DNA of 64,000 bases from Clostridia bacterium (GCA_900764105.1 CAAFMS010000013.1:28445-92444); one strand, 5' to 3'. Shown: positions 1 to 62,930, numbered from the stretch's first letter. Made by a program: numbers and translations. The notes: a model not told the origin generated them from the sequence alone.

Positions 1-867
1 GGTCTCGGAGACTTGCTCGACGAGGTATGCTCGCATTTCAAACAAGTCGAGACCGAAGAGGAAGAGGACAGACTTAAAATAGCGATAGTCGGCAAGCCGA
101 ACGCGGGTAAATCGAGACTTACGAACGCTCTTTTAGGCTACGACAGAACGATAGTTTCGGACATTGCGGGAACGACGAGAGACGCGATAGACACGCCGCT
201 CGACGTTGACGGAAAGAAATACACGCTCATAGATACGGCGGGAATAAGAAGAAAGCGTTCGGTGTCGGAAGATTTGGAGTATTACAGCGTTTTAAGGTCG
301 TTCGCAGCGATTAGAAGAGCGGACGTGTGCCTTATAGTTATAGACGCTTTCGAAGGTCTTACCGAGCAGGATGTGAAAATCGCCGGCTACGTTCACGAAC
401 AGGGCAAGCCGTCGATTATAGTAATGAACAAGTGGGATAAGGTCGAAAAAGACACGCATACGATAAACGAGTTCGAGAAAAAGATACAAACCGACCTCGC
501 GTTTATGGACTATTATAAGTCGATATATATATCCGCGAAAAACGGGCAGAGGACGAACAAACTTTTCGGGCTTTGCGAAGAGGTTTACGCGAATGCAGGC
601 AAGAGAATAACGACGGGAACGCTCAACGACGTAATTTCGGACGCGGTAAGGGCAAACGAACCGCCCACGAAGAACGGCAGGAGACTAAAAATATACTACG
701 CGGTACAGGACGGAGTGTATCCGCCGACGTTCATACTCTTTGTAAATTCGCAGGATTTGATGCATTTCTCATACAAGAGGTATATAGAAAACACGATAAG
801 AAAGACTTTCGGGTTCGAGGGAACTCCGATAAGGATATTTATACACGAGAAACAGGAAGATAATTAA
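1..867 (+). CDS. der: GTPase Der/EngA, C-terminal part (second GTPase domain plus KH domain). The 5' end lies upstream of the window.
   Basis: Walker A GKPNAGKS, G2/G3 TTRD...DTAGIRR and NKWD G4 motifs; KH-like C-terminus. The ORF frame is open from position 1. Confidence 0.85.
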   Translation, partial: GLGDLLDEVCSHFKQVETEEEEDRLKIAIVGKPNAGKSRLTNALLGYDRTIVSDIAGTTRDAIDTPLDVDGKKYTLIDTAGIRRKRSVSEDLEYYSVLRSFAAIRRADVCLIVIDAFEGLTEQDVKIAGYVHEQGKPSIIVMNKWDKVEKDTHTINEFEKKIQTDLAFMDYYKSIYISAKNGQRTNKLFGLCEEVYANAGKRITTGTLNDVISDAVRANEPPTKNGRRLKIYYAVQDGVYPPTFILFVNSQDLMHFSYKRYIENTIRKTFGFEGTPIRIFIHEKQEDN

Positions 868-996
868 CCGAATGTAAAAGCCTACCGTTGTTTAGCGGTA
901 GGCTTTTCGTATATGTAATAATAGCGGTTAGTCGTCGTATAAGTCGGTTAACTCGCAATTTGCGATGTATAAAATAAAGGGGCTGTAAAAAACTAT

Positions 997-1173
997 CGGG
1001 ACGTCGAGGCGCCGTCCCCTACGGCAAACTTATTATATATTCATATTAAAGGATTTTTGTTGATAGCGTTTTGTTATTCGGCAATCTTCCTTTATTGAGT
1101 TATTTGTCGAAGAATTTAAATCGCGCAACTTTTTATCTTAAATAATCGTAGGGGACGGCGCCTCGACGTCCCG
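997..1173. mobile_element. MITE-like hairpin repeat, family A copy A1 (about 177 bp, AT-rich core between 27-bp inverted termini).
   Basis: Terminus cgggacgtcgaggcgccgtcccctacg at 997-1023 and its reverse complement at 1147-1173. The same termini recur at 11498-11673 and 41624-41833. Confidence 0.6.
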
Positions 1174-1259
1174 CTGTTTACGGCTACTTTTTATTTAGTC
1201 GCTAAGTAATAACAATAACTCGGCGTATAAGTCGATTAGCTCGCATTTTGTATAAATAA

Positions 1260-1305
1260 TGACCCCGATATTTTTACATTTGCAAAAATATCGGGGTTTT
1301 TCATT
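1260..1305 (+). terminator. Rho-independent terminator-like hairpin followed by a T-tract.
   Basis: Stem ccccgatattttt / aaaaatatcgggg (loop acatttgc) followed by tttttcatttttt. Confidence 0.5.
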
Positions 1306-1342
1306 TTTTAATCAGGTTCTGTCGTTGCTTTGTTTAAAAATG

Positions 1343-1531: not shown

Positions 1532-1532
1532 C

Positions 1533-6573: not shown

Positions 6574-8408
6574 TTTGTTTTCCTTTGCAATTTCGTAGCG
6601 AGTACTTCTGCTAAGAGGTTTAAAAGAAGTACTATTACTATAAGAACTACCGCTGCGGCGTAAGCCTCGCTTAAATGCCAGCCCTCTCTCGAAAGGTTGT
6701 AAAGCGCGACCGCGAGCGTCGCTCCGCTGTCCGTAACAGACTTCGGGGTTGCGGATATTACCGAACCCATGGTGTATACGAACGGCGCGGACTCGCTTAC
6801 GATTCTGCCCGTCGCGAGTATTATCGCCGATAAAATACCGGGGAGCGCGGACGGCAGAACTATTTTGAATATCGTCCTTACCTTTCCCGTTCCGAGAGCG
6901 TAACTTCCTTCTCTCAGTCCGTCCGGTACCGATTTCAGACTTTCCTCTACCGAGCGGACTATCGTCGGAAGAAGCATCATCGAGATAGTGCATACGCCTG
7001 CTATTATGCTCGACGAACCCGTGAAGAATTTGACGAAGGTTATCATACCGAAAAGTCCGTACACAATCGACGGAACGCCGCTTAAAACGTCTATCGAAAC
7101 CCTTATTATCCGTATAAGCGGATTTTTCGCGTTCGCGTACTCGTTTAAGAAAATCGCCGCCGAGATGCCTATCGGGACAGAGATTAAAAGACTTAATCCG
7201 ACCGTGTAAAGGGTGGTCATAATCGAGGGGAGTATGGTTACGTTTTTGCTTCCGTACTCGTATCTGCCGTATATTATAGACGGGTTTTTGATTAGTTCGG
7301 GAACGCCTTTATAAAAGACGAAACCGACGACAACGAAGAGCGTAAGTCCCGCTATAAGTCCGTTAATTACGGAAATATACTTTTTTGCTTCCGAATATTT
7401 CGGGCTGAACGATAACCCTTTTACCTTGTCGTTTAACTTCTTGAAAAATTCCGAAACGGGATTTATTTTGCGGATTTTATCCGCCGCCTTTTCCTTTTTC
7501 TTCGTCGAACGTTTTACAGCCGAAGTAACTACCTTGCCCGACACGAGGTTGAACGCTGTATTGATCAAAAGCACGAATACGAGAAGAACTACGCCCGTCG
7601 CTATCAACGCTCCTTGTTGCAAATCGCCCGCGTATCCCATTTCGAGAACTATATTCGCCGTCAGCACTCTGAACGAAGAGAAGAACCCTTCGGGGTATGC
7701 GACCGAGTTGCCCGCTACCATTATTACCGCCATCGTCTCGCCCAAGGCTCTGCCCGTGCCGAGAATGAGCGAAGCGGTGATGCCCGATTTTGCAGACGGG
7801 GAGAGTATTTTGAATATCGCCTGAGACTTTGTCGAACCCATAGCGACCGCTCCTTCGTAATATGTTTTCGGCACGGCTTCGAGGCTCGTTTTCGAGAGCG
7901 ACACTACCGTGGGAAGTATCATCACGCCGAGAATTATCGAGGTGGCGAGCAGTCCGCTACCGTTGTTCGGGGCGATTTTCGCGAGCAGGGGAAGAAGAAA
8001 CGTTATTCCGAAAAATCCGTATACTACCGAGGGTATTCCCGCAAGCAGATTTATTACCGCCGAAAAGGGACGTTTGACTATTTTCGGACAGTAGAAAGCG
8101 AGGAAAATCGCCGTGAAGTAGCCGATTATGCCGCCGATTAAAACCGCGCCCGTCGTCGCGGCGAGCGTGCCGACTATCATTTTGAATATTCCGTAACTTC
8201 CGGAAACGTCGCCCGTAAAACCGTCCTCTCTGTTTGGCGCCCAGTTGCTGCCGAACAGGAAATCGAAGAATCCGATTTTAATCAGGGCGGGGACGCTTTT
8301 TATTATCAGAAAACCGAATATTGCGACGACCGAAATCGTACACACGATAGCCGCCGCCGCAAATATTCCTTTTCCGATTTTTTCTTTTATCCTTTGAAAA
8401 CCGAACAT
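6570..8408 (-). CDS. pstCA: Fused phosphate ABC transporter permease PstC-PstA.
   Basis: 612 aa with two consecutive permease halves, each carrying an EAA-like loop ([15 protein letters not shown]... and [16 protein letters not shown]...). Overlaps the pstB start by 4 nt. Confidence 0.8.
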
Positions 8409-11497: not shown

Positions 11498-11673
11498 CGG
11501 GACGTCGGGGCGCCGTCCCCTACGATTGTCGAAATAAAGTGTTTCTATTGATTATTTCCGACATATATTCAATCTTGATAAAATTGCCGACGATGAAAAT
11601 ACGAATAAAAGCAGGCTTTTTATTCAATCCGATGGTTGAGTTTTGCCGTAGGGGACGGCGCCCCGACATCCCG
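11498..11673. mobile_element. MITE-like repeat, family A copy A2.
   Basis: cgggacgtcggggcgccgtcccctacg at 11498-11524 and its reverse complement at 11647-11673, flanking an AT-rich core. Confidence 0.6.
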
Positions 11674-11928: not shown

Positions 11929-12864
11929 TTATTCTCCGTTCGTCGTGAGAGATACGCCGTCTATCAGCCGTCCGTGGAAAGATAATTTAGCATATTCCGC
12001 TTTGTCGCCGTATAAAAGAAGTATCTCGTCGTCCGACCTGTGACACGGCGGCGGCAGAGCCGCCGAGAAATCCCCGAAAAAACCCCTGAGTTCGGCGGAT
12101 CTCGGGCGAAGCGACGGGGCGAGGAAATCGGCTACGTTCTTGCCGAGTTGCAATTCTTCGAAAAATGCGTACGGAAGCAGACAGTCGGGGACGGAGAATA
12201 ACTCTCTGCCCCTTTTTATTTCGGCTTTTCTGATTTTCACGCTTTCGCCGAATTGCCAATATGAAGTTACGACGTGATGAAGAGCGTCGTTTTTTAATTC
12301 CGTAATTACGACTTCGTCGCCTTTCGCCGAGTATTCGTCGCATTCCCGACGTAAAACCGTCTCGATTTTCTTTCCGAGTTTAAAGCCTGTCGCTATCGTT
12401 TTTTTCCCGGTCAGAAACACGAGCAGATAATTGTTTCCGTATACGCAGGCTTTTTCGATTTCTGCGGAAGTCGGTTTAAAGGCTATCCCTTCCGTCTTTT
12501 TATCTCCGTTTGCCGTCACCGATATTTTGACTCCGTTTTCTATGTAAACCGAAACTTCCGCAATGAAATCTGGGTACTCGACTTGCTTGAAAAATATCGA
12601 CTCATACTCGGATACGATTTGTCTTTTAAAGTTCGGAATAATCAAAAAAGCCCCGTATAAGTCGATTATCGAAGCGTTTTCCCATTTATCGACTGTTTTT
12701 TCATTCCACTGTAAACACACGGGAACGTAGTTTGCGGAAAAGGGTATAAATTCGATAAGCCCTTTTTCGGACGGTATAATCGAGTAATTTTCCGAGGCTT
12801 TTCCTATATATCTCCCGTTGAATTTTACCGCGCACGGTACCGAAGATAAAAAATATAGATACAT
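11929..12864 (-). CDS. Hypothetical protein, 311 aa.
   Basis: Long ORF with no recognisable motif. Confidence 0.5.
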   Translation of the reverse strand: MYLYFLSSVPCAVKFNGRYIGKASENYSIIPSEKGLIEFIPFSANYVPVCLQWNEKTVDKWENASIIDLYGAFLIIPNFKRQIVSEYESIFFKQVEYPDFIAEVSVYIENGVKISVTANGDKKTEGIAFKPTSAEIEKACVYGNNYLLVFLTGKKTIATGFKLGKKIETVLRRECDEYSAKGDEVVITELKNDALHHVVTSYWQFGESVKIRKAEIKRGRELFSVPDCLLPYAFFEELQLGKNVADFLAPSLRPRSAELRGFFGDFSAALPPPCHRSDDEILLLYGDKAEYAKLSFHGRLIDGVSLTTNGE

Positions 12865-18614: not shown

Positions 18615-18652
18615 AACGTTGTGATACTCTCCTTGCTCAGACGTCAATTTTA

Positions 18653-20914
18653 TTACGCCGTACGGTCGAATATTCTCACGCAAAACGCAGTCATATCGTC
18701 CTTCGCTTCGCCGTCCGTAAGCGATAACGCTCTGCTTAAAATGTTGTCCGCAAGCGTTTTCGGGTTCAACGCCCTTTGCGAAGATAAAAAGTCTATCAGT
18801 TCCGAGGACGAACCGAACGCGTCCGATATTCCGTCGCTCACAAGTACCACGACGTCTCCAGACGAAAGATTTGTTTTACAGACTGTCGGATGAAGTTCAT
18901 CGAGTATTCCGAGCGGCAACGAACTCCCTTCGACTATTTTCACCGAATCTTTCGTGATTATAAACGAGTAGGGCGAGCCTATTTTGATAAAGTCCGCGCT
19001 GCCCGAGAACAGGTCGATAACCCCCACGTCGAGAGCGGTGAAGTTGTCCTCACCGTTAAAGCATAGAACTTTATTCACGGTGGAAAGTACGGTTTCGCTC
19101 GAAAGTTCGGCTTTATAAAAGGTCTCGACGAGCGATACCGCCGCTGACGAGGTAACGGAGGCTTTCTCGCCGCTACCCATTCCGTCGTTTAAAGCGACGA
19201 GGAATTTACCTTCGTTTATCTTTGTAATCGAGTGGGTGTCTCCGCTTTTTTCTTTATCGTTTTTAGTTTTTTGCGACACCGAAAACGCCGCGTCGAATTT
19301 AGGCGAACGCCTTAAAGTGACGGCTGAGAGTTCTTCCGATAGATTAAAAATATCGCTGATAATCAACTTATAGCCCACCGTTTCCGAAATTGCTCGCAAA
19401 AATAACGGCTTTTGAATTTGCTTTTTCGGAAGCAGAACGCTTATCTCTTTATCGCTTCCGCCCTCGAATACGAGAGTCTCCAAAGCGGCAATGCCTACCG
19501 ATAAAAGGTTCTTGTTTATTTCGTCGGCGAGTTCGCTTTTGAGTTCTAACGTTCGACTCATATCCGCAGCCATATTTTTTATCGCCTCGGATAAACCCTC
19601 CGTCTGTGACAGCACGAGGTCTCTTCCGTCTTTAAGCGATTCCGCCCTTAACAACTCCCTTTCGTTTTCTCGGGCGAGAAAATCGGCTTCTTCCACGATT
19701 CTGTCGTTGTATTTGCAGTTAGTCATAAACCCTTTCGGGAGGTCGGCGAGGTTCAGTTTGCCTTTTGCCGTCGCTATTTGCATAGTTTTTTTCAGTTCCT
19801 CGTCCGACGGGAACATTACGCTTCGGCAATTTGAAAGGTTTTCGCATCCAGAACACGCCTTTACGAATAGTTCGTCCGCGAGGTCGGCTTCGACTTGTTC
19901 TTCCGAGATGGTTTTTTCGGACAGTTTTTCGAGCGATTGTATCATTTCGTCGAATACGGCGGATATTTCAAATAACTTCCCCGAAATTCCGAGCCTGTTT
20001 CTGTTTACGGCGTATTTTCCGAGATTGTTTTCCCTGTAAAGGGCGAACTCGTTTCGTATTTTACGCATAAACGATTCGGGCATAAACAGGTACAAGGCGA
20101 CGGGCGCGATTATAAAATAATTCTCGTACTCGGCGTACCCTATGTATGCGTCGGAAAATCTCCACAGCAACACTTTTACCGCAAGGGCGGAAAGCGACGC
20201 GGCGAGCCGAGAGTTTTTCGCGAGGCAGACGGCGGCTAAAGAGTAGAGGGCGAGCGGCGCGATTTTATTGGCGTCTCGGCTGTACAAAAATATAGGAAGC
20301 GAGGCTATAAGCGCGTAAACCGACGAAACGCCTCCTTTTAAAAGGCTTGCCGAAAGCAGTACGACGTACAATGCGAACGCCTCGTAGATTGCCTCGGACG
20401 AAAGGTTTACCGCCCCGTAAGCCGCCGCGACGTAGAGTACGGAAGCGGACACTATCTCGTCGGTCGAAAGACGGTATTTAAGCCCCTTGACTAAAAACAC
20501 CCTCGCCGCAGAGATGAATACGAAACCGAGCGGCACGCACGCCGCCGCGATTATCGCTCTTGCGGTAATATTGTGGCAGTCGCGTATGGCTATGTACGGA
20601 GCAACGGCTATTGCGAGAACCAAAGCGAGTTCGATTTTCGGCTTGCGTTTCAGTTTGTTCATAATAAGATAGTATACGACCGTCACTATTCCGCCCGCCG
20701 CTGCGGCAGTTATCGTAAACATCGAGAGGGAAAAGAGAAACGGCAGTACGTAGAGTGTAAACGACGCGAACGGGTTAAGCCCTACGAACAGATTTGCCGA
20801 GAGCAGAGGTAGTGAAAGCGGCGGATACTTGCCGTCGGTGGAAGTCAGAAGGACGTATCCCGTGAATGATAGAGCATATCGCCCCGCTTTTTTAAAATTA
20901 AACGCTTTTTTCAT
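18653..20914 (-). CDS. spoIIE: Stage II sporulation protein E (SpoIIE-like membrane PP2C phosphatase).
   Basis: About 10 N-terminal TM helices, a central regulatory region and a C-terminal PP2C-type domain (ALNDGMGSGEKAS ... VSDGISD). 753 aa. Confidence 0.65.
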   Translation of the reverse strand: MKKAFNFKKAGRYALSFTGYVLLTSTDGKYPPLSLPLLSANLFVGLNPFASFTLYVLPFLFSLSMFTITAAAAGGIVTVVYYLIMNKLKRKPKIELALVLAIAVAPYIAIRDCHNITARAIIAAACVPLGFVFISAARVFLVKGLKYRLSTDEIVSASVLYVAAAYGAVNLSSEAIYEAFALYVVLLSASLLKGGVSSVYALIASLPIFLYSRDANKIAPLALYSLAAVCLAKNSRLAASLSALAVKVLLWRFSDAYIGYAEYENYFIIAPVALYLFMPESFMRKIRNEFALYRENNLGKYAVNRNRLGISGKLFEISAVFDEMIQSLEKLSEKTISEEQVEADLADELFVKACSGCENLSNCRSVMFPSDEELKKTMQIATAKGKLNLADLPKGFMTNCKYNDRIVEEADFLARENERELLRAESLKDGRDLVLSQTEGLSEAIKNMAADMSRTLELKSELADEINKNLLSVGIAALETLVFEGGSDKEISVLLPKKQIQKPLFLRAISETVGYKLIISDIFNLSEELSAVTLRRSPKFDAAFSVSQKTKNDKEKSGDTHSITKINEGKFLVALNDGMGSGEKASVTSSAAVSLVETFYKAELSSETVLSTVNKVLCFNGEDNFTALDVGVIDLFSGSADFIKIGSPYSFIITKDSVKIVEGSSLPLGILDELHPTVCKTNLSSGDVVVLVSDGISDAFGSSSELIDFLSSQRALNPKTLADNILSRALSLTDGEAKDDMTAFCVRIFDRTA

Positions 20915-21023: not shown

Positions 21024-22718
21024 ATGAAGAGGTTGAAAAATTTAACGGCGGGTTTAATCGCGTTTACGCTTGCCGCCGTCGTTTCGGGTTGTAAAAAAAC
21101 CGACGAGACGAAAAACGACAAGTTTATAAATTCGCTCGCGGTCGTTCGTTTTTCCGAGGGCGAAAGAGTTTCTAGAGCGAAAAGCGTTACGGAGGAAGTG
21201 TTTTTCCGCGACGAAAATTCCGTCAAAAACTACGTCGGAAAAATATCGGGCGGCAAGGCGAATTATACGACCGTTTCGTTTGAAATATGCGAATTGAAAA
21301 CCTCCGTAAAACGATATTTACCTGCCTATAAGTCGATTAACGGCGAATATGAGTTGATAAATGAAGAGGGTTACGACAATAGAATCACAGGCGAAAACGG
21401 AGAGGTTTCGAGAGGCGGAGAGAACTCGGGCAGATTTATCGCCGAGCAAGAACTCGTCCGCGAGATAGGCGAGAGTTTAAGGTCGGATTTGCCGAACGAC
21501 GGCGACGGAGACGGATTTGCCGATCTCGTGACGGTCGTATTCGATTTGAAATCGCAAGACGCGGACACCGTCTTAGCCCTCGCTTCGAGCGGAATCTTCA
21601 ACGCGCATCAGGGCGAGTATTATGCGGGAAAGTTCTCATACGGAGACGAGGAAATTACTTTCGGCGAAGCGAAAGCGGGCGGCGCGAAAATCGGTAAGTA
21701 TGTTTTTATGCCTCTCGGTTCGATATATAAAGAGGGTCAAAAGTACTACGCTGCCGCCTGTCACGAGACTTTGCACGCGTTCGGCGCGGCGGATATGTAT
21801 ACGGCGGACGGCTTAACCGAACCCGTCGGGGCGATTGACGTAATGGGTAACGTTCCTCTCGAAAAACTCACGGTAAATCCCGTTTATCCGCTCTCGTACA
21901 CGAGGGAAAAACTCGGGTTTATCGGCGGCGAAGATTTAGGGGCGGTAATAAAGAGCGGCGAGTATACGCTTTTTCCGACCGAGTCCGAAAAATCGGGGAT
22001 AAAGGCATACAAAATCGTACCGCCCGACTTTTTGGAGAGAAGAGATTGTTTTTATGTCGAATACAGAAAAAGCGAGGGGGACGGCAAGCCGAATTTCGAC
22101 GGGCTTATAATTTACAGAGTAAACGGCGGTAACGGCTATATTCAAAGAGACGGCGGCTACGGGAAAGCGTATAACGGCAACCTTTACGGCGAAAACGAGG
22201 TTTACGTTTTCAGGTTTAAAGACGCGAACGAGGACGATAAAACTTTCGACGGGGCAAACTGTTTCGCCACGCTTTCGTCTCAGTCGGAAAGGACGACTTT
22301 CGGCTCGGAAACGAACGGCGAAAACCTTATAACTTATTCGGACAAAACCAACTCGGGGATAGTCGTAAACTTCTTGAAAAACAACTCCGACGGCTCGGTT
22401 ACGTTTTCGATAAAATTGCCCGAATACGACGTAAAAAACCCCGCCGAAGTCGATTATCGCGAAATATTCGTCGATAAAGGCGGCAATTTAAAACTTGATT
22501 TTTACCGTCCGCTCGCGAGCGGAAACGCCTACGTCGTTCAGACCGAAAAGCCGATAATAAGACCTTCGGCGAAGAAGATAAAAAGCGGGAAGTACGGCAG
22601 CGTAAAGATACTGCCTTCGGCGTTTATGGAAACGGAATTGTCGTACGAGGGAAACTACGTTTATCTCGCGTTCGACGATACCGACGAGATAAAATCTTAC
22701 GTTCTGAAAAAGTCGTGA
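21024..22718 (+). CDS. Secreted lipoprotein carrying an HExxH zinc-metallopeptidase motif.
   Basis: Lipobox AAVVSGCKK; zincin motif ACHETLHAFGAADMY; 564 aa. The peptidase family was not determined. Confidence 0.5.
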   Translation: MKRLKNLTAGLIAFTLAAVVSGCKKTDETKNDKFINSLAVVRFSEGERVSRAKSVTEEVFFRDENSVKNYVGKISGGKANYTTVSFEICELKTSVKRYLPAYKSINGEYELINEEGYDNRITGENGEVSRGGENSGRFIAEQELVREIGESLRSDLPNDGDGDGFADLVTVVFDLKSQDADTVLALASSGIFNAHQGEYYAGKFSYGDEEITFGEAKAGGAKIGKYVFMPLGSIYKEGQKYYAAACHETLHAFGAADMYTADGLTEPVGAIDVMGNVPLEKLTVNPVYPLSYTREKLGFIGGEDLGAVIKSGEYTLFPTESEKSGIKAYKIVPPDFLERRDCFYVEYRKSEGDGKPNFDGLIIYRVNGGNGYIQRDGGYGKAYNGNLYGENEVYVFRFKDANEDDKTFDGANCFATLSSQSERTTFGSETNGENLITYSDKTNSGIVVNFLKNNSDGSVTFSIKLPEYDVKNPAEVDYREIFVDKGGNLKLDFYRPLASGNAYVVQTEKPIIRPSAKKIKSGKYGSVKILPSAFMETELSYEGNYVYLAFDDTDEIKSYVLKKS

Positions 22719-28987: not shown

Positions 28988-30396
28988 TATATAATTTGTT
29001 AGCGATGCCGACGGCGCTCAGAACGGCGTTATACGCAATTCTGGCGATACTTATGCTTATGCTTATGATAACCGTCCACGAACTCGGACATTATCTCGTC
29101 GGTAAAATTTTTAAATTCAAGATAAACGAATTTTCGATAGGAATGGGTCCCGCGATTTTCAAACGCAAGATGAAAAGCGGCGAACAGTTCTCGATAAGGG
29201 CGTTTCCGCTCGGCGGTTTCTGCGCGTTCGAGGGCGAGGACGACGATAAAGACGACCCGAACGCGTTCAACAATAAAAAGCCTTGGCAGAGAATATTGGT
29301 TCTTATCGCCGGCGCGTTTATGAACTACGTTTTAGCCATTCTGATAATAATTCTGTCTATGTCGATTTACGGTCAGACGGTTATGGGCGTACAATACGCG
29401 AGACACGACGACGCCATTTACGGACAGACCATCGAGTCGCAAATACCCGCCGATAAGTCGATTAACGACGGGGAATACATTTTATCGATAACGAAAAACG
29501 GCAAAAAAACGAACGTATATATGACTGTCGATTTAATCTCCGCGCTCAATCACGCGAAGAAAGGCGACGAAGTTACGCTCGAAATAATGAAGGGCGATAA
29601 GAATACCGAAAAGAAAACGATAATACTTCGCTCGGACGTCGAGTGCAAAAATATCACCGAGGTGACGAAGGTATACGAGGCTCTCGGGATAGGTTCGGCT
29701 ATGCAGGTCGAGCCGACGAGCGAAAACTCGCCGTTAAAAAACGGTAACTTTATTATAAAAATAGGCAAGACGGGCGAAGAATACAAAAACGCAACGTTCG
29801 TGTATTCTGCGGACGATATAGCGTACGTCTTGAAAAATTTCGACGGCGACTCGTTCGCGATTTGGACGTCGAGAGATAATTCGGTAATTCTCACGCTCAG
29901 CGACGAACTGAAAGCGGCGGCAAGTAGCGGCGGCGAAGCGGTTATGGCTGCGCTCGGGGTAAAGGATACGGGCGTCCGCTCATATTATACCGCGGCGAAG
30001 TATATGAAACTCGGCTTTTTCAGAACGATAGGACACTCGTTCGAGTATTCGTTCAAGATTGCGGGAACGGTGTTCAGAACGCTCGGTCAACTACTGACGG
30101 GTAAACTCGGGTTAAGCGCAGTCGGCGGAACGGTTACGACGATAGTTACGACGACCAAAGTTATAAGTTACGGCTTAGTGTACGCGCTGGAAATAATGAG
30201 TTTTATAGGCGTAAACCTTGCGGTGTTCAATCTTTTGCCGATACCCGCGCTCGACGGGGCGAGAGTAGTGTTCTGTTTAATCGAATGGATCAGAAAAAAG
30301 CCCGTGAACAGAAAAGTCGAAGCGGCGGTAAACGGTATAGGCTTGATTTTAATTCTCGGCTTTGCGATACTCGTAGATATACTGCAATTTATTTAG
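28969..30396 (+). CDS. rseP: RIP zinc metalloprotease RseP/RasP (site-2 protease) with a PDZ domain.
   Basis: HELGHYLVGK HExxH in TM1, a PDZ region, and a C-terminal LDG motif (NLLPIPALDGARV). The precise start is uncertain; Met at 29005 or later is possible. Confidence 0.85.
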   Translation: MRGRILIYNLLAMPTALRTALYAILAILMLMLMITVHELGHYLVGKIFKFKINEFSIGMGPAIFKRKMKSGEQFSIRAFPLGGFCAFEGEDDDKDDPNAFNNKKPWQRILVLIAGAFMNYVLAILIIILSMSIYGQTVMGVQYARHDDAIYGQTIESQIPADKSINDGEYILSITKNGKKTNVYMTVDLISALNHAKKGDEVTLEIMKGDKNTEKKTIILRSDVECKNITEVTKVYEALGIGSAMQVEPTSENSPLKNGNFIIKIGKTGEEYKNATFVYSADDIAYVLKNFDGDSFAIWTSRDNSVILTLSDELKAAASSGGEAVMAALGVKDTGVRSYYTAAKYMKLGFFRTIGHSFEYSFKIAGTVFRTLGQLLTGKLGLSAVGGTVTTIVTTTKVISYGLVYALEIMSFIGVNLAVFNLLPIPALDGARVVFCLIEWIRKKPVNRKVEAAVNGIGLILILGFAILVDILQFI

Positions 30397-32590: not shown

Positions 32591-33298
32591 TTATCTTGTC
32601 CGGCATGGTTTGTCGTTGTTTTCACCGAAAAGAATTGCGTTTAGTTCCTCGGTTTTTCTGCGGGGGACAGAGTCGTCGTAATAGGCGTTAATCGCCTTAT
32701 AGGCTAACTTATCGCCGTCGATGTCTAAAATTCCGAACCTCGCGCAGTCCTTTTCGAGGAAGTTTCCGAGCGTTCCGAAGTTGAGGTAATATTTGTCGCC
32801 CAAACGGGTAAAAGACCCCGTGTGTTCGTGTCCGAAAAGGAATACGTTACCTTTAAGACCCGAAAAAAGTTCGCGAACCTCGTTATCGGTCGGCATATAG
32901 ATTATGTCCTTAAACCTGCCCTTTTTATTCATAGGATAGTGAAAAGCGACGATTTCGTATTTGCCGTCCTTATACGTTACCGAACGGGGAAGAGAAGAAA
33001 GGAATTCCTTCGACGCCTCGGAAAGAACTTTTTGTTGCCAGCGGAACATTTTAAGCCGAGTGTCCTCTTTCGGAAATTCGTCAAGGTCGAGGCAGACGAA
33101 GATATCGTGATTGCCTTTCACGCAAACGATATCTTTGCGTTTTCGGACAAGCGATACGGTCTCCTCGGGGTAAAATCCGTTGCCGACGATATCCCCGAGA
33201 AGAAGAGTGACGTCGGGCTTATATTTGTCTATTTCGGAAAGGGCGGCTCTCAAAGCGAAAACGTTTGAATGTACGTCCGATATAATTGCATATTTCAT
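32591..33298 (-). CDS. Calcineurin-like metallophosphoesterase.
   Basis: DVHSN ... GDIVGNG ... GNHD motifs. Confidence 0.7.
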   Translation of the reverse strand: MKYAIISDVHSNVFALRAALSEIDKYKPDVTLLLGDIVGNGFYPEETVSLVRKRKDIVCVKGNHDIFVCLDLDEFPKEDTRLKMFRWQQKVLSEASKEFLSSLPRSVTYKDGKYEIVAFHYPMNKKGRFKDIIYMPTDNEVRELFSGLKGNVFLFGHEHTGSFTRLGDKYYLNFGTLGNFLEKDCARFGILDIDGDKLAYKAINAYYDDSVPRRKTEELNAILFGENNDKPCRTR

Positions 33299-35337: not shown

Positions 35338-35572
35338 AATTTGCCTATTCTAACATATAAATAGTTAAAAAGCAACCTTTTTTACGCGTCAAATAAAAAT
35401 GTTATTTATAAAAGTTTGCCTATAAGTCGATTAACGGGCGTTCTACCGTGAGTAGAATAAAATATTTCACCTCTACTTTCAGTTTTGTCGAAATATAGTT
35501 ACATACTTATTCAAACGCTTGCAAGATTAAGAAGAGATAATTATAATAAATAAAAAACTTCGGAGACAAAAT

Positions 35573-36891: not shown

Positions 36892-37479
36892 ATGGCAGTA
36901 AGCAGAATTATGTTAAAGACCGCTATTTGCGGCGGAACGGAAAATCAGTTTTTACTCGGCGAGAAGTATTTTTACGGCTACGGCGAACAGAAAAATCTCG
37001 CCTTGGCGGAGAGTTGGTACAAAGAAGCGGCGAAAAAAGGTCACGCCGCCGCTACCTATATGTACGGCTATATGACGATTAACGGGCTTGCGGGCGAAAT
37101 AAATCTGCGTAAAGGCAATTTGCTCATAAAAAAGGCGGCGGCAAAGAACAATCTTAAAGCGATGCTTCTTTTAGCGCGGAATTATTATTATGGTTACGGC
37201 ATAAAACGCAACGAGAAAAAGGCGTTTAAAACGTGGGAAAAGGGCGCGAAACTCGGTTGCGCCGAAGCCGAATACTACCTCGGACTTTGCTATGAGAAGG
37301 GCATTTACGTTAAGCCCGACCTTATGCGCGCGAAAAAACATTTGTACAACGCTTTGGAGTCGGGTTTCGACCTCGCGAAAATCGCGCTGAACGATTATTC
37401 CGGCGGTAAAAGTACCTCTTTGCCCGGCTTTGAATATACGGCTCGTACTCTTTCTTCCGACCTTGTAAAAATCGCTTGA
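36892..37479 (+). CDS. Sel1/TPR-like repeat protein.
   Basis: Repeated Sel1 units (A.YMYGYMTINGLAG, NYYYGYGIKRNEKKAFKTWEKGAKLGCAEAEYYLGLCY). GGAGG RBS before MAVSRIM at 36892. Confidence 0.65.
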   Translation: MAVSRIMLKTAICGGTENQFLLGEKYFYGYGEQKNLALAESWYKEAAKKGHAAATYMYGYMTINGLAGEINLRKGNLLIKKAAAKNNLKAMLLLARNYYYGYGIKRNEKKAFKTWEKGAKLGCAEAEYYLGLCYEKGIYVKPDLMRAKKHLYNALESGFDLAKIALNDYSGGKSTSLPGFEYTARTLSSDLVKIA

Positions 37480-37585
37480 ATAAGACGTTTTTATATTTTG
37501 TATAAGTAAAAACAGACTTTCTCACCTTGATTTTTCGGCAATTCTATGGTAAAATATCTCTAAACGACAATAAAAGGAGATCGTT

Positions 37586-38929: not shown

Positions 38930-38930
38930 T

Positions 38931-40163
38931 ATGAGAATAGAGAAATCGACGAAAAAGTCGAAAGAGGTCTGCGTGAACGTGACGAACGGAGTTGCGGACT
39001 CTCTGCGTATAAAAAACGTTTCGACCGCAACCGTAAGGGCTTACGATAACGGCCTTATAGGGATAGAGGGCAAAATGGGCGACGCCGATTTCGCGGCTCT
39101 CGAAAAAGAGGCGAAAGGCAATCTTTTAAGAGGTATTCCTTATCCCGATAAACCCGAAAAACCCCTCGATAAGTCGATTAACGTGAGAAAACACATAGTG
39201 AACGACAAAGATTTTCTGCCTTTCGTATCGGAAGCAGCGAAGAGAATAGCCGACGAAAATCCGTCGTTTATCATAAACGGCAAGGCGTATTTAAACGATC
39301 TCGAAACGGAGTATTCGGACGGAAACAGGCATCTTAAATACGCGGGCAATTCCTGCGACTTCGCCGTTATCTTCAAGGATAAAAAATCGGCGAACATTAT
39401 GGACGGAAGCGTTGCGGTGAGCGGGGACAGCCTTATAGGCGAGGACTTTTTCAAGGACGTAAAACTCAAACTCGACTGTTTTTTAAGCGTTCTGCCGCAC
39501 GTTAAGGGCGATAGAGTCAAGGTTATAGCGGGCGTGGAAGTTATGACTTATATTCTGCAACACTTCGTCGCGGACGTATATTGCAATAACGCTTCGCTTC
39601 TGAACGGTAAGTTGGGAACTAAGGTATTCAGCGAAAAACTTTCGGCAATGTGCGATCGCACGCCCGAAAAGGCTCTTTTAACTCCTTTTTACGACACCGA
39701 GGGCGTAGTGAACGAAGACTACAAGGCGTATCTTATCAAAAACGGCGTAATGAAAGGGCTTGCGACGACGAAATATTCGGCGGACAAATACGGAGTGGAA
39801 AACAGCGGTACCGCGGCTGCGGAGTATGCGGGGGCTCCCTCTATTTCTGCGATAGGGTTCGATATAGAAAGGACGGCAGACAGTCTCGAAGAGTTGATAG
39901 GAGAGGACGAGGCGATATATCTCGATCTTACCTCGGGCGGGGATATGACTCCCGACGGCAATATAAGTTTGCCCGTACAGGTCGCGTTTTTATATAAAGA
40001 CGGTAAGATTGTCGGCAGACTGCCCGAATTTTCGCTTTGCGGAAATATGTTCGATATATTCGGCAAAGACTATATAGGGGCGACCTCGCTCGGCTCGATT
40101 TTCAAAAGTTTACGCAGAGACACGGTTATCGTAACCGAAATGAACGTTGTGAATAAAAAATAG
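38931..40163 (+). CDS. pmbA: TldE/PmbA-family partner protein.
   Basis: A TldD/PmbA fold without the HExxxH motif, located directly downstream of tldD. 410 aa. Confidence 0.7.
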   Translation: MRIEKSTKKSKEVCVNVTNGVADSLRIKNVSTATVRAYDNGLIGIEGKMGDADFAALEKEAKGNLLRGIPYPDKPEKPLDKSINVRKHIVNDKDFLPFVSEAAKRIADENPSFIINGKAYLNDLETEYSDGNRHLKYAGNSCDFAVIFKDKKSANIMDGSVAVSGDSLIGEDFFKDVKLKLDCFLSVLPHVKGDRVKVIAGVEVMTYILQHFVADVYCNNASLLNGKLGTKVFSEKLSAMCDRTPEKALLTPFYDTEGVVNEDYKAYLIKNGVMKGLATTKYSADKYGVENSGTAAAEYAGAPSISAIGFDIERTADSLEELIGEDEAIYLDLTSGGDMTPDGNISLPVQVAFLYKDGKIVGRLPEFSLCGNMFDIFGKDYIGATSLGSIFKSLRRDTVIVTEMNVVNKK

Positions 40164-45263: not shown

Positions 45264-45289
45264 GCCTATAAGTCGATAAAACGGCAATT

Positions 45290-45345: not shown

Positions 45346-45422
45346 CCGTTTATCGACTTATTCTTTCGTTTTTAATAGGTAAAAACGAAACCGTAAATCG
45401 TTCTATAATAGAATTGTGTAAC

Positions 45423-52130: not shown

Positions 52131-52240
52131 AATCAATATTTTTAATGCAATCGCCTGTGGCTACGGAAGTAATATTTTACTTGCAAAGTTATATTGCTAT
52201 CGCAGTTATATTTACCTTGCGGTAAGTGTTGAGCGAAGTC

Positions 52241-52268
52241 GTAGGGGACGGCGCCCCCGACGTCCCGC
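52241..52268. repeat. Solo family A terminus adjoining composite repeat C.
   Basis: gtaggggacggcgcccccgacgtcccgc. The preceding about 90 bp (52141-52240) is about 80% identical to 63071-63160. Confidence 0.5.
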
Positions 52269-52374
52269 TTTTCTCTGTTTACAACCCCGTTTACTATACG
52301 CGATTGTTTCTTCGAAGTAAAATAGTCGGAAAGCTTTATCTGCCGATTTGCTGCGGGGAAATTAAAATCACTCG

Positions 52375-52530
52375 CCTGAATATAAAAATATTGCTCATTA
52401 AAAAGCGAAAAAGTTGCTCACGAAGAAGTGAAAATATTGCTCACTAAAAAGCAGAAAAGTTGCTCACATAATAGCAAAAAATTTGTTCAAAAGCATTGAC
52501 AAATCGCAGACTGTGGTATATAATGTGGCT
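52375..52530 (+). promoter_or_regulatory. Tandem 40-bp direct repeats (TTGCTCA half-sites) plus a consensus promoter upstream of the HNH gene.
   Basis: aatattgctcattaaaaagcgaaaaagttgctcacgaaga and aatattgctcactaaaaagcagaaaagttgctcacataat, then a degenerate third copy, then ttgaca-17-tatataat (52496-52525). Confidence 0.45.
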
Positions 52531-52762
52531 ATTCACAAGCGATGGCGTATTTAACGCTATTTTATGATTTGTCGAGAATGGTAATAATTTTACAAGGCGG
52601 CGGAAAATTTAATTGCGATTAAGAAGAGTATAGAAAAGGAAGGCGGCGTCGCCCCTTCGGTTTTGTGCGTTATATGCGGACTATTAAACGCTGCGTACGT
52701 TCGTCCGGACGGCGTTTACGTTACGCCTGTTACCGCTCTTAAAGATTAACGGGGGTGCTTTT

Positions 52763-53593
52763 ATGATTTGGTTTTTTATCGCCGCAATATGTTTGATTTT
52801 CGTTGCGGTCGTTTTTATCGTTCTAAGAGAAAGAAAATACAAAAAATTTATTCTCGAAAACAGCGTAACTCTCGGTAAACTTCGCGAGGTCAACGATAAA
52901 TATTATTTCTTTAACCTTGTCAATTACGATATGAGTAATACCTATGATAATCAGGACTTCTATAACGATATAAGTTGTCGGGATTACCTCACGTACCAAC
53001 TTCAATTTAAGAAAAAAGAGATTTCGGAACAGATTTTCAAAGCGGAAAAGAACAGGGAAAATTATCGCAAATACAGAGACGAAATAAAGTCGATAAACAA
53101 AATAGGGACATTTCGCGACGATACGGGGAAACTAAATAAAGAAAAACTTATAAAAACGGAAAAGAAAATATGCAATAAAACCGCGCTTTCTCCGTCGCTC
53201 GATTATTCGGTAAAGGTAACGTTATATTGTTCTAAGATAAACGGAAGGAAATATGAGGGTAAAAGTCAAATATTTTCTTCCGACGATATACTTTTTATCA
53301 TATCGAAAGGGATAGACGATAAAATCGGTCAGTTCTATAAAAATAAGGACGTATGGGACTCTATATGTCGGGTTGAGCGTGGAAAAGTGTCTAACGCAAT
53401 GAGGTTTTCTATATATAAACGCGATGGTTATAGATGCCGAATGTGCGGAATTTCGGACAGGTTTGCAAATCTTGAAGTCGACCATATAATTCCGATTTCC
53501 AAAGGCGGGAAATCGACTTACGACAACCTGCAAACGTTGTGCCACAGGTGCAACGTACAGAAGGGCAATAGTATGCCGTATAAAAAACATTGA
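52763..53593 (+). CDS. Membrane-anchored HNH endonuclease-domain protein, AT-rich.
   Basis: N-terminal TM helix IWFFIAAICLIFVAVVFIVL. About 190 aa of unknown K/E-rich domain. C-terminal HNH motif RDGYRCRMCG...LEVDHIIPISKGG...DNLQTLCHRCNVQKG. Markedly lower GC than its neighbours. Confidence 0.65.
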   Translation: MIWFFIAAICLIFVAVVFIVLRERKYKKFILENSVTLGKLREVNDKYYFFNLVNYDMSNTYDNQDFYNDISCRDYLTYQLQFKKKEISEQIFKAEKNRENYRKYRDEIKSINKIGTFRDDTGKLNKEKLIKTEKKICNKTALSPSLDYSVKVTLYCSKINGRKYEGKSQIFSSDDILFIISKGIDDKIGQFYKNKDVWDSICRVERGKVSNAMRFSIYKRDGYRCRMCGISDRFANLEVDHIIPISKGGKSTYDNLQTLCHRCNVQKGNSMPYKKH

Positions 53594-53606
53594 CGATTTG
53601 AGAATA

Positions 53607-53682
53607 TAAAAGCGGCTGTAAAGGATATAGAGTAAGACGGCGGTTTTGCCGTTATGCCAAGTATCCTTTACAGCCGCTTTGG
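53607..53682. terminator. Long bidirectional terminator hairpin between the HNH gene and pgm.
   Basis: aaagcggctgtaaaggata ... tatcctttacagccgcttt (18-bp stem). Confidence 0.6.
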
Positions 53683-57027: not shown

Positions 57028-57534
57028 CTATTCGATGTTTTTCGTCCTTGTGTTTTTTATATTTTTTACTATATAATATCCCGCTGTCGCTACCATAGAA
57101 CCGACGGTCGCTCCGAGCGTGTCCATTCCTACGTCGAGCCATTCAGAGCCTCTGCCTCGGATAAATTTTTGAAGTATAAATTCGTCCGAAAGGGCGACTA
57201 AAAAGCACAAGGCTATAGAAAACAACGCCGTATAATATTTTGGAACCTTGAAATCGAAAGAGACGAGGAACAAAAGCAGGAAAAACGACAGGGCGCAAAA
57301 TTCGAGCGAATGGGCGATTTCCCTGAGCGTAGGGTGGATACGCCGTACTTCGGCTTCCTTTTGAGGCTCGGACATATCTTTAAATCCGGGAACGATTACC
57401 GTCGCTACGATTTCGGTTACGTTTTTACTCGTTTCGGCTGATTTCTCGCCCGTTTTCGCCGAATTATATATGACGAAAGCAAGGCATAGAATAGTCATAA
57501 ACCCCGTTATAAGTCGATAAATCAACAATTTCAT
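57028..57534 (-). CDS. VanZ-like membrane protein.
   Basis: 4 TM helices and an R..H..EF..L..FLL motif (REIAHSLEFCALSFFL). Confidence 0.55.
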   Translation of the reverse strand: MKLLIYRLITGFMTILCLAFVIYNSAKTGEKSAETSKNVTEIVATVIVPGFKDMSEPQKEAEVRRIHPTLREIAHSLEFCALSFFLLLFLVSFDFKVPKYYTALFSIALCFLVALSDEFILQKFIRGRGSEWLDVGMDTLGATVGSMVATAGYYIVKNIKNTRTKNIE

Positions 57535-57537
57535 ATA

Positions 57538-60189: not shown

Positions 60190-60408
60190 TGTTTCTTTCG
60201 CTCGTTTTTCGTTGATATTAGAGAGAATCGTCTCGCATACGCAAAGATATATATTCTCTCATACTAAGTATAACATATAACCAAGCGAGTTGACAATAGT
60301 TTTTTCCTTTTTCGGGGAAAATTTTTGTGTGAAAGTTTTAGGGGATAGGAAATTTTGGTTGTAAAAAACGAGAATCTAATTTTAATTTAAGACGCAAACA
60401 GTTAACTA

Positions 60409-60569
60409 TGCTTTCTCCTTCGGGGAAAGTGGCTTGACGGAATGAAATGGAAGTCAAGACGATAGGGGATAAAAACGAAAATTTGTAAAAATCAGTGCTT
60501 TATTGTCCCCTTCCGTCAAATCTTCGCTGATAGCCGCTCGATTCGCCACCTTCCCCGAAGGAGAAGGCG
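60409..60569. mobile_element. Family B hairpin repeat copy B6.
   Basis: ctttctccttcggggaaagtggcttgacggaatgaaatggaagtcaagacgataggggataaaaa ... tttattgtccccttccgtcaaatcttcgctgatagccgctcgattcgccaccttccccgaaggagaaggcg. Confidence 0.6.
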
Positions 60570-60653
60570 AGGGATTTAATCGATAAGGTCGCATTTTTCG
60601 GGATATAGATGCGATTTTTTTACAGCCTCGAAACGTTCGGAATACGGAATATA

Positions 60654-62090
60654 TTATCGGCTGTTTTTGCGACCGCGTTTGATTTTGCGGTAAAGTCGCT
60701 CCTTGTCGATTGTAATGACCGATTTGCCGCCGTCCTTCTTTTCGGGCTTCGGTCTCGACATTATGAAATATCTCAGTTCGTCCAGACTGTGGTCGTCTAC
60801 CTTTTTCGGGACGTCGCCGTCCCCCCACCTGTAACGTTTTAACTCTCTTATCAGGTTAGTACATGTTTTGAAAATGTACAGTCTGTCGTTTTTTAAGTAT
60901 TCTTTTACCCTTGCTATGCCCGAAAATAAGTCCTTGTTTACTTTGGGATTTACTAAAATTCCGTAGTCGTAAAACAATTCGGTCACGCTCTTTAAGGACG
61001 ACAAAGTCTTTTGATTTGCCGCCGAGTCGATTAAGGCTCGTATACGCCCGTCGTTATCCCGTCGCCAGCCTATTTGGTCGCATTTTTTCTTTATCGCTTC
61101 GCTATGGTATTCCACGTCCTTCCCCGACTCGAAGTGTTCCGCCACGACGTAGACGGTGTCGTCGTAGTCCACGCAGTACCAGTGAGCCGACAACGGATTG
61201 TTAAGCCCCGGGTCTATCGAAATATTGTTCTGCCAGTCGAAAGGGAAGTCGAAAGGTTCGATAACGTGCTTGTTTTCGTCAAATTCGGGATAAACAAGCC
61301 CCGAACACGCCTTAAATTCGCCGTATCGCCTCGTCCTTAGTTCTTCCTCGCTCATAGACGAATCGAGTCCGTCGATTTCGTCTTTCGATAAAAACGGATT
61401 ATCCGCCCATTCGACGAATTCGCACCAGACCTCGTCGGAATTTCCGCTGTTTAAGTAAATCTCTTCATAGACGAAAGTCAGCCCTTTCAACGGGGTCATA
61501 GTGCCGAAAACGTCCCCTCTTTTGTCGATTACCCGCATAAGGCACTCTCTGTATACGTCCTCGGGCGGTTCTTCGTCGAACCAGACGTAATCGAGCGAAC
61601 TGCCTTGAAATTTCTCCCTGCCCTGATCGCAACTTTTAAAACCTATCGTCGATATTCCGCCGAACACGTTTTTGACCTTTATCTGATCGATTACGCCCCC
61701 CTCGGGGTCGCCGCGCTTACCTGAACTCATTACGACTTCCTTTATCCATTCCTTGGGCAGATATTTGAGGATTTTGCTCTGCGCGACGTCTCTTTGGACT
61801 TCTCGGGAGAGGGAAACGACCCATCCGAAAGTGTCTTTTCTGTTTTCCCTGTAAGGGTGAATACCCCTCGCCATATATACGGTTTCGACTGCGCCGCATT
61901 CGGTTTTACCGCTTCGGTTTCCGCCGAACACCCACCTGTTTCGTTTTTTGCATTTATGAAAAGCAACTTGCTTTTCGTGTGTTTTTGCGCCCGTGTTGTA
62001 GTTGTAAATAGGCAAACTTTTACGCCTTTCTATTTCCTCTTCCACGCGTTTTATAGCCTTTACGGTCTCTTCCGAGTTCATTTTCGACAC
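60654..62090 (-). CDS. Phage terminase large subunit (TerL), solitary.
   Basis: Walker A FGGNRSGKTE, Walker B DYVWFDEE, and a C-terminal RNaseH-like nuclease region. 478 aa. No portal, capsid, small-terminase or integrase genes nearby. Confidence 0.7.
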   Translation of the reverse strand: MSKMNSEETVKAIKRVEEEIERRKSLPIYNYNTGAKTHEKQVAFHKCKKRNRWVFGGNRSGKTECGAVETVYMARGIHPYRENRKDTFGWVVSLSREVQRDVAQSKILKYLPKEWIKEVVMSSGKRGDPEGGVIDQIKVKNVFGGISTIGFKSCDQGREKFQGSSLDYVWFDEEPPEDVYRECLMRVIDKRGDVFGTMTPLKGLTFVYEEIYLNSGNSDEVWCEFVEWADNPFLSKDEIDGLDSSMSEEELRTRRYGEFKACSGLVYPEFDENKHVIEPFDFPFDWQNNISIDPGLNNPLSAHWYCVDYDDTVYVVAEHFESGKDVEYHSEAIKKKCDQIGWRRDNDGRIRALIDSAANQKTLSSLKSVTELFYDYGILVNPKVNKDLFSGIARVKEYLKNDRLYIFKTCTNLIRELKRYRWGDGDVPKKVDDHSLDELRYFIMSRPKPEKKDGGKSVITIDKERLYRKIKRGRKNSR

Positions 62091-62156
62091 AATCTCCTTT
62101 TTTACGAAATTTATTTATGTTTTTTTCGGTAGTAGCGAAGTTATAATTATCGTACT

Positions 62157-62930
62157 ATGAAAAAACTCGTTATTTCACTTTTTACCATATTGTCCGTTAT
62201 CGTTACGGGACTTTTCGTCGCGTTCGGTTCCGCCCAAAAAAAATTCGCCGTTGCCGCAGAGGAAAGGTACTCCCGAGTGCTTGGCGAAAACGTGGTTTTA
62301 TATATGGACTCGTCTATGACGATGCCGTGGTTTACTCTTCCGTACAGTTATTACGTCAAGGTTATAAGCGTTAGCGGAACGGCGGCGAAGGTGGAATATC
62401 GCGGCGGCGGTTCGAAGCCGTCGGCTAAGGGGTACATAGACGTTTCGGAACTTAATATCGTCGAGGAAACGCCGTCCGTGATTTTTCCCAATCTCACTTT
62501 AACGGTCAATCAGAACTGTATGCTGTATAAAGACACCGACTTCACGATAGCCGAAACTGTAACGCAAAACAGTACTGCGGACTTCTACGGAATACTCGTT
62601 CGCCCGAACGGGGAAAAGTTTATTTATTCGCTCGTAACCACGACCTCGGGAGACAAATACGTGGGCTATATGTCGATTAACGCCGTTTCTGAGTTTACAA
62701 TACCTGTTTTGAAAGTGGAGGCGGAAACGCCCGACGAAAGCCTTTCGGGGGAGTCCGATTCGGGTAAAGACGACGCCGCAAAAACGGGCAACGGACTACA
62801 ACTCGCAATTATCATAGCGGTGTCGGCGGTTGCGATTTCCATAGTATACTTATTATTTCGCCCGTCGGGCAAGGGCAGAGCGAAAGACGAAGCGATAACC
62901 TCGAACGAGTTTGACGACAACGACTACTGA
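62157..62930 (+). CDS. Membrane-anchored secreted protein of unknown function.
   Basis: N-terminal signal/TM plus a C-terminal TM (LQLAIIIAVSAVAISIVYLLF) with an acidic tail. A terminator-like hairpin at 62978-63005. Confidence 0.45.
   Translation: MKKLVISLFTILSVIVTGLFVAFGSAQKKFAVAAEERYSRVLGENVVLYMDSSMTMPWFTLPYSYYVKVISVSGTAAKVEYRGGGSKPSAKGYIDVSELNIVEETPSVIFPNLTLTVNQNCMLYKDTDFTIAETVTQNSTADFYGILVRPNGEKFIYSLVTTTSGDKYVGYMSINAVSEFTIPVLKVEAETPDESLSGESDSGKDDAAKTGNGLQLAIIIAVSAVAISIVYLLFRPSGKGRAKDEAITSNEFDDNDY

Follow-up and report, generated by a model that had tools for sequence, protein, structure and literature searches.

The stretch analysed here is a 64,000-nucleotide segment of DNA from a Clostridia bacterium (GCA_900764105.1, CAAFMS010000013.1:28445-92444), referred to hereafter as the window; positions are counted from its first nucleotide. 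Its genes include der/engA, spoIIE, rseP (M50 peptidase), a gene for a 564-aa secreted protein, a tandem pair of pmbA/tldD-family genes, a ttcA-like ATP_bind_3 gene and a lone large-terminase gene, and its intergenic DNA holds several miniature inverted-repeat transposable elements (MITEs). Because the organism carries spoIIE, it is a spore-forming Firmicute. Proteins encoded in the window were found identically on contigs from human-gut metagenomes, including the 762-kb contig CAYCMN010000014.1 (GCA_964317065.1), and the species is present in hundreds of metagenomes. No RNA family was found anywhere in the 64 kb with Rfam at gathering thresholds (no tRNA, riboswitch or T-box). Dispersed through this DNA is a short word with the 15-bp core ATAAGTCGATTAACG, which is the subject of this analysis.

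Over-representation of the word had been proposed from reading of the window sequence (the original prediction), and the counts uphold it. With up to 2 mismatches, TATAAGTCGATTAACG matched 11 times in the window versus 0.23 times expected from dinucleotide shuffles, a number equalled in 0 of 100 shuffles. The 9-mer TAAGTCGAT occurred 11 times (1.19 expected), and ATAAGTCGA ranked high among the window's 9-mers in both frequency and strand skew (11:1). A position weight matrix (PWM) of 38 positions, trained solely on copies from other species, found 19 sites of at least 8 bits compared to 0.30 in Markov shuffles, and 12 sites of at least 20 bits compared to 0.00. Five sites scored 8-15 bits where <0.3 were expected; such an excess of weak sites is what the rise and decay of copies would lead one to expect, and the four sites at 8-11 bits may be decaying or nascent copies. 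The 19 sites in 64 kb correspond to one site per 4-8 kb, at least in the window, while the density in relatives looks lower, at a rough ~1 exact or one-mismatch copy per 24 kb once the ascertained copy is set aside. A sequencing or assembly artefact was ruled out by the in-frame coding copies, by conservation at orthologous places and by the presence of the word in assemblies from many independent studies. As a genomic signal the word is real and strongly non-random; it is apparently undescribed, and considerably larger and more widespread than first seen.

The individual positions fared less uniformly. A best match lies within ~12 nt of all 17 coordinates originally listed, but three of these (9470, 53087 and 61026) are poor, with only 11-13 of 18 bases matched and <8 bits. 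The description of a single reversed copy did not hold, since minus-strand copies lie at 32686, 19357 and 45347, and weaker minus-strand matches at 5620, 13474 and 46873; those at 32686 (one mismatch), 19357 and 5620 had been overlooked.

To describe the spread of the word, the exact 15-mer was scanned against one genome per species, which gave at least 118 loci. Eighty of the 118 listed loci lie in ~35 metagenome-assembled genomes (MAGs) titled Clostridia, Clostridiales or Christensenellaceae. These MAGs come from the guts of humans, goats, deer, buffalo and reindeer, have a GC content of 35-50% and include, among the matches listed, one assembly with at least 11 loci. The remaining 38 are lone matches across unrelated phyla that do not carry the extended flank pattern described below, and they are what chance predicts (an estimated ~1,100 chance matches in 596 Gb). 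The clade statistics that follow rest on 107 copies, the clade loci being those among the matches listed. The window's own species is absent among the listed MAGs, and the best DNA identity is 65-70%. One contig (L008, CAZVPW010000041.1), 68% identical to the window pmbA/tldD genes, is labelled 'uncultured Acidiphilium sp.' and is probably a mis-binned Clostridia contig. Two loci (L118 and L021) hold 2-3 copies close together; their neighbours are ordinary (aldolase, metallophosphoesterase, AraC-type regulators), and the idea that such clusters mark a special gene was rejected.

Alignment of the 107 clade copies showed that the full word is AAAA-R-Y-SSGSCT-ATAAGTCGATTAACG-SSNW-TTTT, ~35 bp in length and thus longer than the 16-mer first described. 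The core is near-invariant at all 15 positions and its edges are sharp. Upstream, the flank consists of AAAA at -12 to -9 (95-98% of copies have A at position -10), followed by R at -8, Y at -7 and SSGSCT at -6 to -1; downstream, SS occupies +1/+2 and a T-tract +5 to +8. The flanks, which played no part in finding the copies, hold 12.8 bits by themselves, and the same extended logo emerged when copies were split into sense-coding (n=30), antisense-coding (n=22) and intergenic ones (n=37). Roughly three helical turns separate the A-tract from the T-tract, and the upstream AWAAGT resembles a direct repeat, 12 bp apart, of the first six bases of the core. Since nothing is conserved beyond -13 and +9, where the logo is flat, the copies are free-standing. 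That they are parts of a larger repeat or MITE was rejected on the same grounds, and because the MITE families are unassociated with the word. The word is non-palindromic and is not a hairpin: in the clade copies flank complementarity equalled expectation at every position pair with no covariation, and the folding energy was -5.7 kcal/mol compared to -5.5 kcal/mol for shuffled (mismatched) flank pairings. A promoter was likewise rejected, inspection of the logo having shown no conserved -35/-10 at a usable spacing on either strand.

As originally noted, copies occur within the coding sequences of unrelated genes and also between genes. Outside any open reading frame (ORF) of at least 100 codons lie 43 of the 107 clade copies, or 60 of 107 by a gene-call heuristic (40-56%), although the non-coding share of these loci is only 13% (enrichment p<1e-11). 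The intergenic copies are mostly found ~10-100 nt from a stop codon, in either orientation: 25 are co-oriented with the flanking genes, 16 are anti-oriented, 9 lie between convergent genes and 3 in divergent promoter regions. Within genes, 37 clade copies are sense and 27 antisense. Thirty-one of the 37 sense copies share the frame xAT-AAG-TCG-ATT-AAC-G, which encodes (Y/D)KSIN; the antisense copies mostly encode LIDL. The KSIN frame read earlier in coding copies of the window was confirmed. The coding copies thus use the two stop-free frames. The copies of the window are listed in Table 1.

Table 1. Copies of the word in the window, with PWM scores, and (last row) the positions of a separate intergenic repeat family.
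Feature	Position	Strand	Score (bits)	Context
Partial copy, TATAAGTCGAT only, in der/engA	514..524	+	<8	Encodes YKSI
Intergenic copy ATAAGTCGGTTAACT	939..953	+	21.6	Left of polymorphic MITE 962-1219
Intergenic copy ATAAGTCGATTAGCT	1227..1241	+	31.2	Right of MITE 962-1219
Weak PWM match	7354..7368	+	8-11	
Copy with full A-tract and T-tract flanks	12657..12671	+	38.5	Antisense within a 311-aa ORF (11929-12864, -), where it encodes SIIDLY; kept in strains L123-L125
Weak PWM match	13474	-	8-11	
Degenerate copy in spoIIE (-)	19357..19371	-	27.5	Sense; absent from the orthologous place in sister species L132
Perfect copy in gene for 564-aa secreted protein	21328..21342	+	36.4	Sense; encodes YKSING
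Degenerate copy CGAAGTCGATTATCG, also in 564-aa protein gene	22445..22459	+	20.9	
Perfect copy in rseP (M50 peptidase)	29453..29467	+	32.6	Sense; encodes DKSIND
One-mismatch copy in Metallophos gene (-)	32686..32700	-	34.5	Sense; encodes YKAINA
Perfect intergenic copy with full flanks (aaaagtttgcct...ggcg)	35422..35436	+	40.1	Best of the window; between divergent MFS and degV genes; kept in strain L120
Degenerate copy ATATGACGATTAACG in Sel1-repeat gene	37070..37084	+	15.6	Sense; encodes YMTING
Perfect copy in second pmbA/tldD-family gene (pmbA2)	39169..39183	+	31.5	Sense; encodes DKSINV
Intergenic copy	45268..45282	+	25.2	5 nt past stop codon of ATP_bind_3 (ttcA-like) gene
Intergenic copy overlapping 3' arm of terminator hairpin	45347..45361	-	15.3	Downstream of tetR-family gene; lost in strain L120, which has a MITE there instead
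Weak PWM match	46873	-	8-11	
Degenerate intergenic copy	57509..57523	+	14.3	Between vanZ-like gene and 883-aa gene; also in strains L126-L128
One-mismatch copy in 257-aa gene	62668..62682	+	28.5	Sense; encodes YMSINA; gene adjoins lone terminase gene; copy also in strains L126-L128
Weak PWM match	63896	+	8-11	
CCACTTCCCCCGAAGGAGGAAGCG/TTTATCCCCTATCG repeats	11698-11890, 15868-16070, 18469-18615, 30518-30630, 33903-33970, 60407-60570			

Comparison of orthologous genes bears on how the copies arise. A search for RseP homologues returned the same species and a sister species (71-74% amino-acid identity), and the DNA of these homologues was fetched blind to the word. The rseP copy is present at the orthologous codon in three species, and third codon positions were conserved at 6 of 6 sites inside the word compared to 10 of 30 in its flanks. 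Similarly, the pmbA2 copy lies at the orthologous codon in L008 (68% DNA identity), with third positions conserved at 5 of 6 sites versus 16 of 30 beside it. Pooled, 11 of 12 third positions were conserved in the word and 26 of 60 next to it (Fisher p=0.003). Upstream of der a minus-orientation copy is present in both species, its placement being taken from gene order and not from an alignment. The orthologues of the 564-aa protein have one perfect copy each, at different places, and their alignment, which has no indel, sets YKSING against YAESEE and NKSIND against GAKIGK. In der itself, YKSI seems to replace what we take to be an equal-length stretch, three or four residues long, of other EngA proteins (API in B. 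subtilis), and equal length would mean that no indel occurred. An in-frame mini-insertion was rejected, as the alignments show residue-for-residue replacement. Across 11 kb of synteny, 1 of 4 window sites was common to the sister species. These alignments thus show that copies form through substitution, are constrained as DNA, and are gained and lost over times comparable to those in which the species diverged. The tandem pmbA/tldD-family pair as a whole (37502-40119) is precisely absent from strain L120, though its internal word copy is conserved in another species.

We favour the view, with a probability of roughly 40%, that the word is an uptake or kin-recognition signal resembling the uptake signal sequence (USS) and the DNA uptake sequence (DUS), one recognised by a protein and spread by molecular drive. 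The preference stems from the combination of features, which matches USS and, terminator pairs aside, DUS. The USS of the Pasteurellaceae has a 9-bp core, AAGTGCGGT, and helically phased AT-rich flanks. The Clostridia word shares with it a non-palindromic core flanked at set distances by A/T-rich sequence, sharing across a family-level clade with some orthologous positions kept, and many copies per Mb sampled, in both orientations and in coding and non-coding DNA, with intergenic enrichment and use of tolerated frames. Unlike USS, it belongs to a Gram-positive spore-former, has a 15-bp core and a density of ~1 per 4-8 kb rather than ~1 per 1.2 kb, and shows no sequence similarity. The DUS of the Neisseriaceae (AT-GCCGTCTGAA and its dialects) is bound by the minor pilin ComP; the Clostridia word is like it in being clade-specific, over-represented and often near the 3' ends of genes, and perhaps also in being scarce in mobile DNA, but no dialects were seen, the same 15-mer occurring in genomes of 35-50% GC, and we know of no ComP-like receptor for it. 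Other highly iterated short sequences, of uncertain or structural function, are the repetitive extragenic palindromic (REP) sequences with their bacterial interspersed mosaic elements (BIME) and the highly iterated palindrome HIP1 of cyanobacteria, and REP also clusters at gene 3' ends; in contrast to REP, which forms extragenic hairpins, and HIP1, an 8-bp palindrome, the word is non-palindromic, forms no hairpin and lies in genes in half of its copies.

If the word is an uptake signal, a receptor of the DNA-uptake (natural transformation) apparatus would bind the 15-bp core ATAAGTCGATTAACG on duplex DNA and read the flanks at AAAAR (-12 to -8), GSCT (-4 to -1) and the T-tract (+5 to +8), while the A- and T-tracts, ~three helical turns apart, would aid bending or melting. 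Kin DNA with better matches would then be taken up and recombined preferentially, and we propose that, as a result, point substitutions toward the word would become fixed where they are tolerated. Such places would be 3' of stop codons and, within genes, where (A/G)-Y-K-S-I-N-(G/A) in sense or L-I-D-L in antisense can be accommodated. We infer protein binding, membership in a competence system, and maintenance by drive rather than by selection. We do not assign the word to the USS/DUS class, whose defining property is biased uptake. The window has none of comEA, comEC, dprA or the genes of a competence pilus, the DNA covered being these 64 kb and scattered loci. It is possible, if somewhat less probable than the uptake signal as such, that the word is the first uptake or kin-recognition signal outside the Proteobacteria, shared among uncultured spore-forming gut Clostridia (Christensenellales-like) that make up a clade of family or order rank.

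Several observations weigh against an uptake signal. Sequence-specific DNA uptake is not known from Gram-positive bacteria, and with 15 bp the invariant core exceeds the length of every known uptake signal. The density of the word is 3-6 times lower than that of USS or DUS. Inverted pairs that form terminators, frequent in DUS and USS, are absent here: the copies are single with flanks that are not complementary, and 0 of 107 clade copies overlap a terminator-like hairpin (11 of 107 have one within 60 nt). The general behaviour of the word does fit the DUS-like reading suggested originally, but the inverted pair around the ttcA terminator on which that suggestion drew (45268/45347) is a single case that is not conserved within the species, strain L120 being without the minus copy. 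No relevant literature was found on the word or on uptake sequences in Firmicutes or Clostridia. The evidence for depletion from mobile DNA is thin (0 copies versus ~2.4 expected). Finally, purifying selection on sites for a chromosomal protein would also produce every one of the supporting features.

In mobile DNA, the 17-mer was present in only one IMG/VR contig. The PWM found 0 sites in 1.04 Mb of phage DNA; most of these phage loci have a GC content of ~31% and, for that reason, probably infect other hosts. In strain L126, a strain-specific 9-kb element with an rve integrase and a rolling-circle Rep (L126 11800-20774) begins shortly past the gene group around the lone terminase and replaces the genes from uxuA to pfkB. 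It contains 0 copies of the word, compared to 3 in the alternative 9 kb of chromosome.

An uptake signal would imply an independent origin of self-preferential transformation among Gram-positive anaerobes of the gut and would point to a new sequence-specific DNA receptor. It would also mean that abundant uncultured Clostridia of human and ruminant guts exchange DNA by transformation, which bears on gene flow in the microbiome, and it would offer a handle for the genetic manipulation of these bacteria. Whether the word is an uptake signal or a site for a chromosomal protein, it can serve as a practical taxonomic or 'native DNA' marker in this clade, both in binning and in telling core from mobile DNA.

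The second of these readings is possible, if less probable than an uptake signal. The word might be the site of a chromosome-organising or 'self-marking' protein (nucleoid-associated, DNA-bending, or involved in segregation or sporulation), with copies maintained by purifying selection. The constraint on synonymous positions at the DNA level and the conservation of position across species are consistent with this, as are the A/T-tract flanks, typical of sites for DNA-bending proteins, and the apparent direct repeat AWAAGT-N6-ATAAGT. The single copy in each orthologue of the 564-aa protein, at differing places, looks as if presence in a region outweighs exact position. In our own comparison, the layout on the reverse strand (an A-tract, 7-8 nt, then AATCGA-N4-TAG) is loosely like the IHF site WATCAR-N4-TTR; the known operators and chromosomal sites compared (cre, the Spo0A box, parS, Noc-binding sites (NBS), dif and IHF) were rejected, that of IHF being the best match, with 2 mismatches in 9 positions. 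Firmicutes are generally without IHF, however, and no candidate protein was identified. Moreover, the density in the window implies ~300-600 copies per genome (a few Mb assumed) of a word of >35 bits, far more than parS, NBS, SlmA-binding sites (SBS), matS or ram, which number tens per genome and are palindromic, and it would be costly to keep so many individually weak sites by selection. If it is such a site, it would exceed every other specific chromosomal site known from Firmicutes in both information content and number.

Spread of the word by templated short-patch conversion is improbable. In this reading a master sequence would be copied into partly matching sites, either with RNA or single-stranded DNA as guide or template or through repair after a site-specific nick. 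Fifteen consecutive near-invariant positions with sharp edges look more like nucleic-acid pairing than protein read-out, and copies appear by multi-base substitution without indels. On the other hand, neither a master copy nor a gene for a guide RNA was seen, nor an enzyme to go with them, the window has no Rfam match, and the graded flanks (the A/T tracts and GSCT) point to read-out by a protein or of DNA shape.

More improbable again is that the word is a feature of mobile elements, either the attachment or target core of MITEs or other integrating elements, as had been suggested for the MITE near the left end of the window, or a miniature inserted element in its own right. That MITE, at 962-1219, belongs to a family with GGGACGTCGAGGCGCCGTCCCCTAC terminal inverted repeats that is also found at 11499-11672. 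It is flanked by two diverged copies of a ~60-bp stretch containing the word, and it is missing in strains L123 and L125, where the empty site has a single word copy; in strain L124, a different MITE adjoins the same copy. These arrangements would suit a target site. In contrast, the other MITE copies of the window lie 300-3300 bp from any word copy, the MITEs themselves carry none, and polymorphic MITEs in strains L120, L126 and L128 (strains 97-99% identical) are not at the word. Only 1 of at least 5 insertion sites examined abuts it, that of the element at 962-1219, and the suggestion is not supported. Flanking sequences past -13/+9 are unrelated, and the coding copies replace sequence one for one, with no indels. 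The family of the 962-1219 MITE is inserted elsewhere in strains L126 and L128.

Still less credible is a strand-polar motif, oriented with replication and read by AddAB (as Chi is) or by FtsK/SpoIIIE (as are the FtsK orienting polar sequences, KOPS, and the SpoIIIE recognition sequences, SRS), although a strong polarity of this kind had been described for the window. There, 14 sites are on the plus strand and 5 on the minus (74% plus, p=0.064, not significant; 11:3 at 15 bits or more, p=0.057), and the GC skew is positive across 8-54 kb. With the ~18 kb of same-species flanks, which contain one further plus copy and three minus copies, the ratio becomes 12:6 (p=0.24). The plus excess in the window is largely due to a preference for sense copies (8 sense and 4 antisense among the 12 gene-internal PWM sites, three of the 4 being weak) combined with the position of most copy-carrying genes on the plus strand. 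In a 21-kb stretch of the sister species with all genes on one strand, the copies are 3+:3-. Across the clade, orientation is unrelated to local GC skew (56 copies co-oriented and 51 anti-oriented) and only weakly related to gene direction (62:43, p=0.08), and single contigs are mixed (6:3 on CAKQJE010000001, for example). Polarity of the Chi/KOPS type is therefore rejected, pending a count on a whole chromosome; there is no replication-strand polarity outside the window in these counts, which come from contigs. The word is like Chi, KOPS and SRS in being an over-represented chromosomal word inside genes, with a density near that of Chi (~1 per 5 kb), but those motifs have 5-8 nt and are co-oriented with replication, whereas the word has 15-35 bp.

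Least likely of all is a transcription element, acting as an RNA motif or as a terminator of the intrinsic or bidirectional kind: the clustering of intergenic copies just 3' of stop codons, the A-tract-core-T-tract order, which resembles a bidirectional terminator, and the few copies that lie in the loop of a perfect hairpin (e.g. L001 and L088) would suit one, but the flanks do not covary or fold better than mismatched pairings, none of the clade copies overlaps a terminator-like hairpin, coding sequences contain about half of all copies, in both orientations, and there is no Rfam match.

Other repeats and strain-variable genes were observed in the window. A second, commoner MITE-like repeat (…CCACTTCCCCCGAAGGAGGAAGCG… / TTTATCCCCTATCG) has 5+4 intergenic copies in the two orientations. 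A 280-bp intergenic element at 13572-13850, bounded by the terminal inverted repeats AGCCGAGCGAGATTCGAAC…GTTTGAATCTCGCTCGGCT, is 80-89% identical to sequences of two other species (L091 and L083), whose genes are only ~65-70% identical to those of the window; it is probably a MITE common to several species, and it has no Rfam match even at E<=1. The HNH endonuclease gene at 52763-53593 (region 52145-53677) varies among strains and is absent in L126, which has MITE copies at the site. The lone large-terminase gene (60654-62090, minus strand) adjoins genes for 883-aa, 257-aa and 172-aa proteins without confident Pfam matches, and the arrangement around it (57538-63685) is kept in all strains seen.

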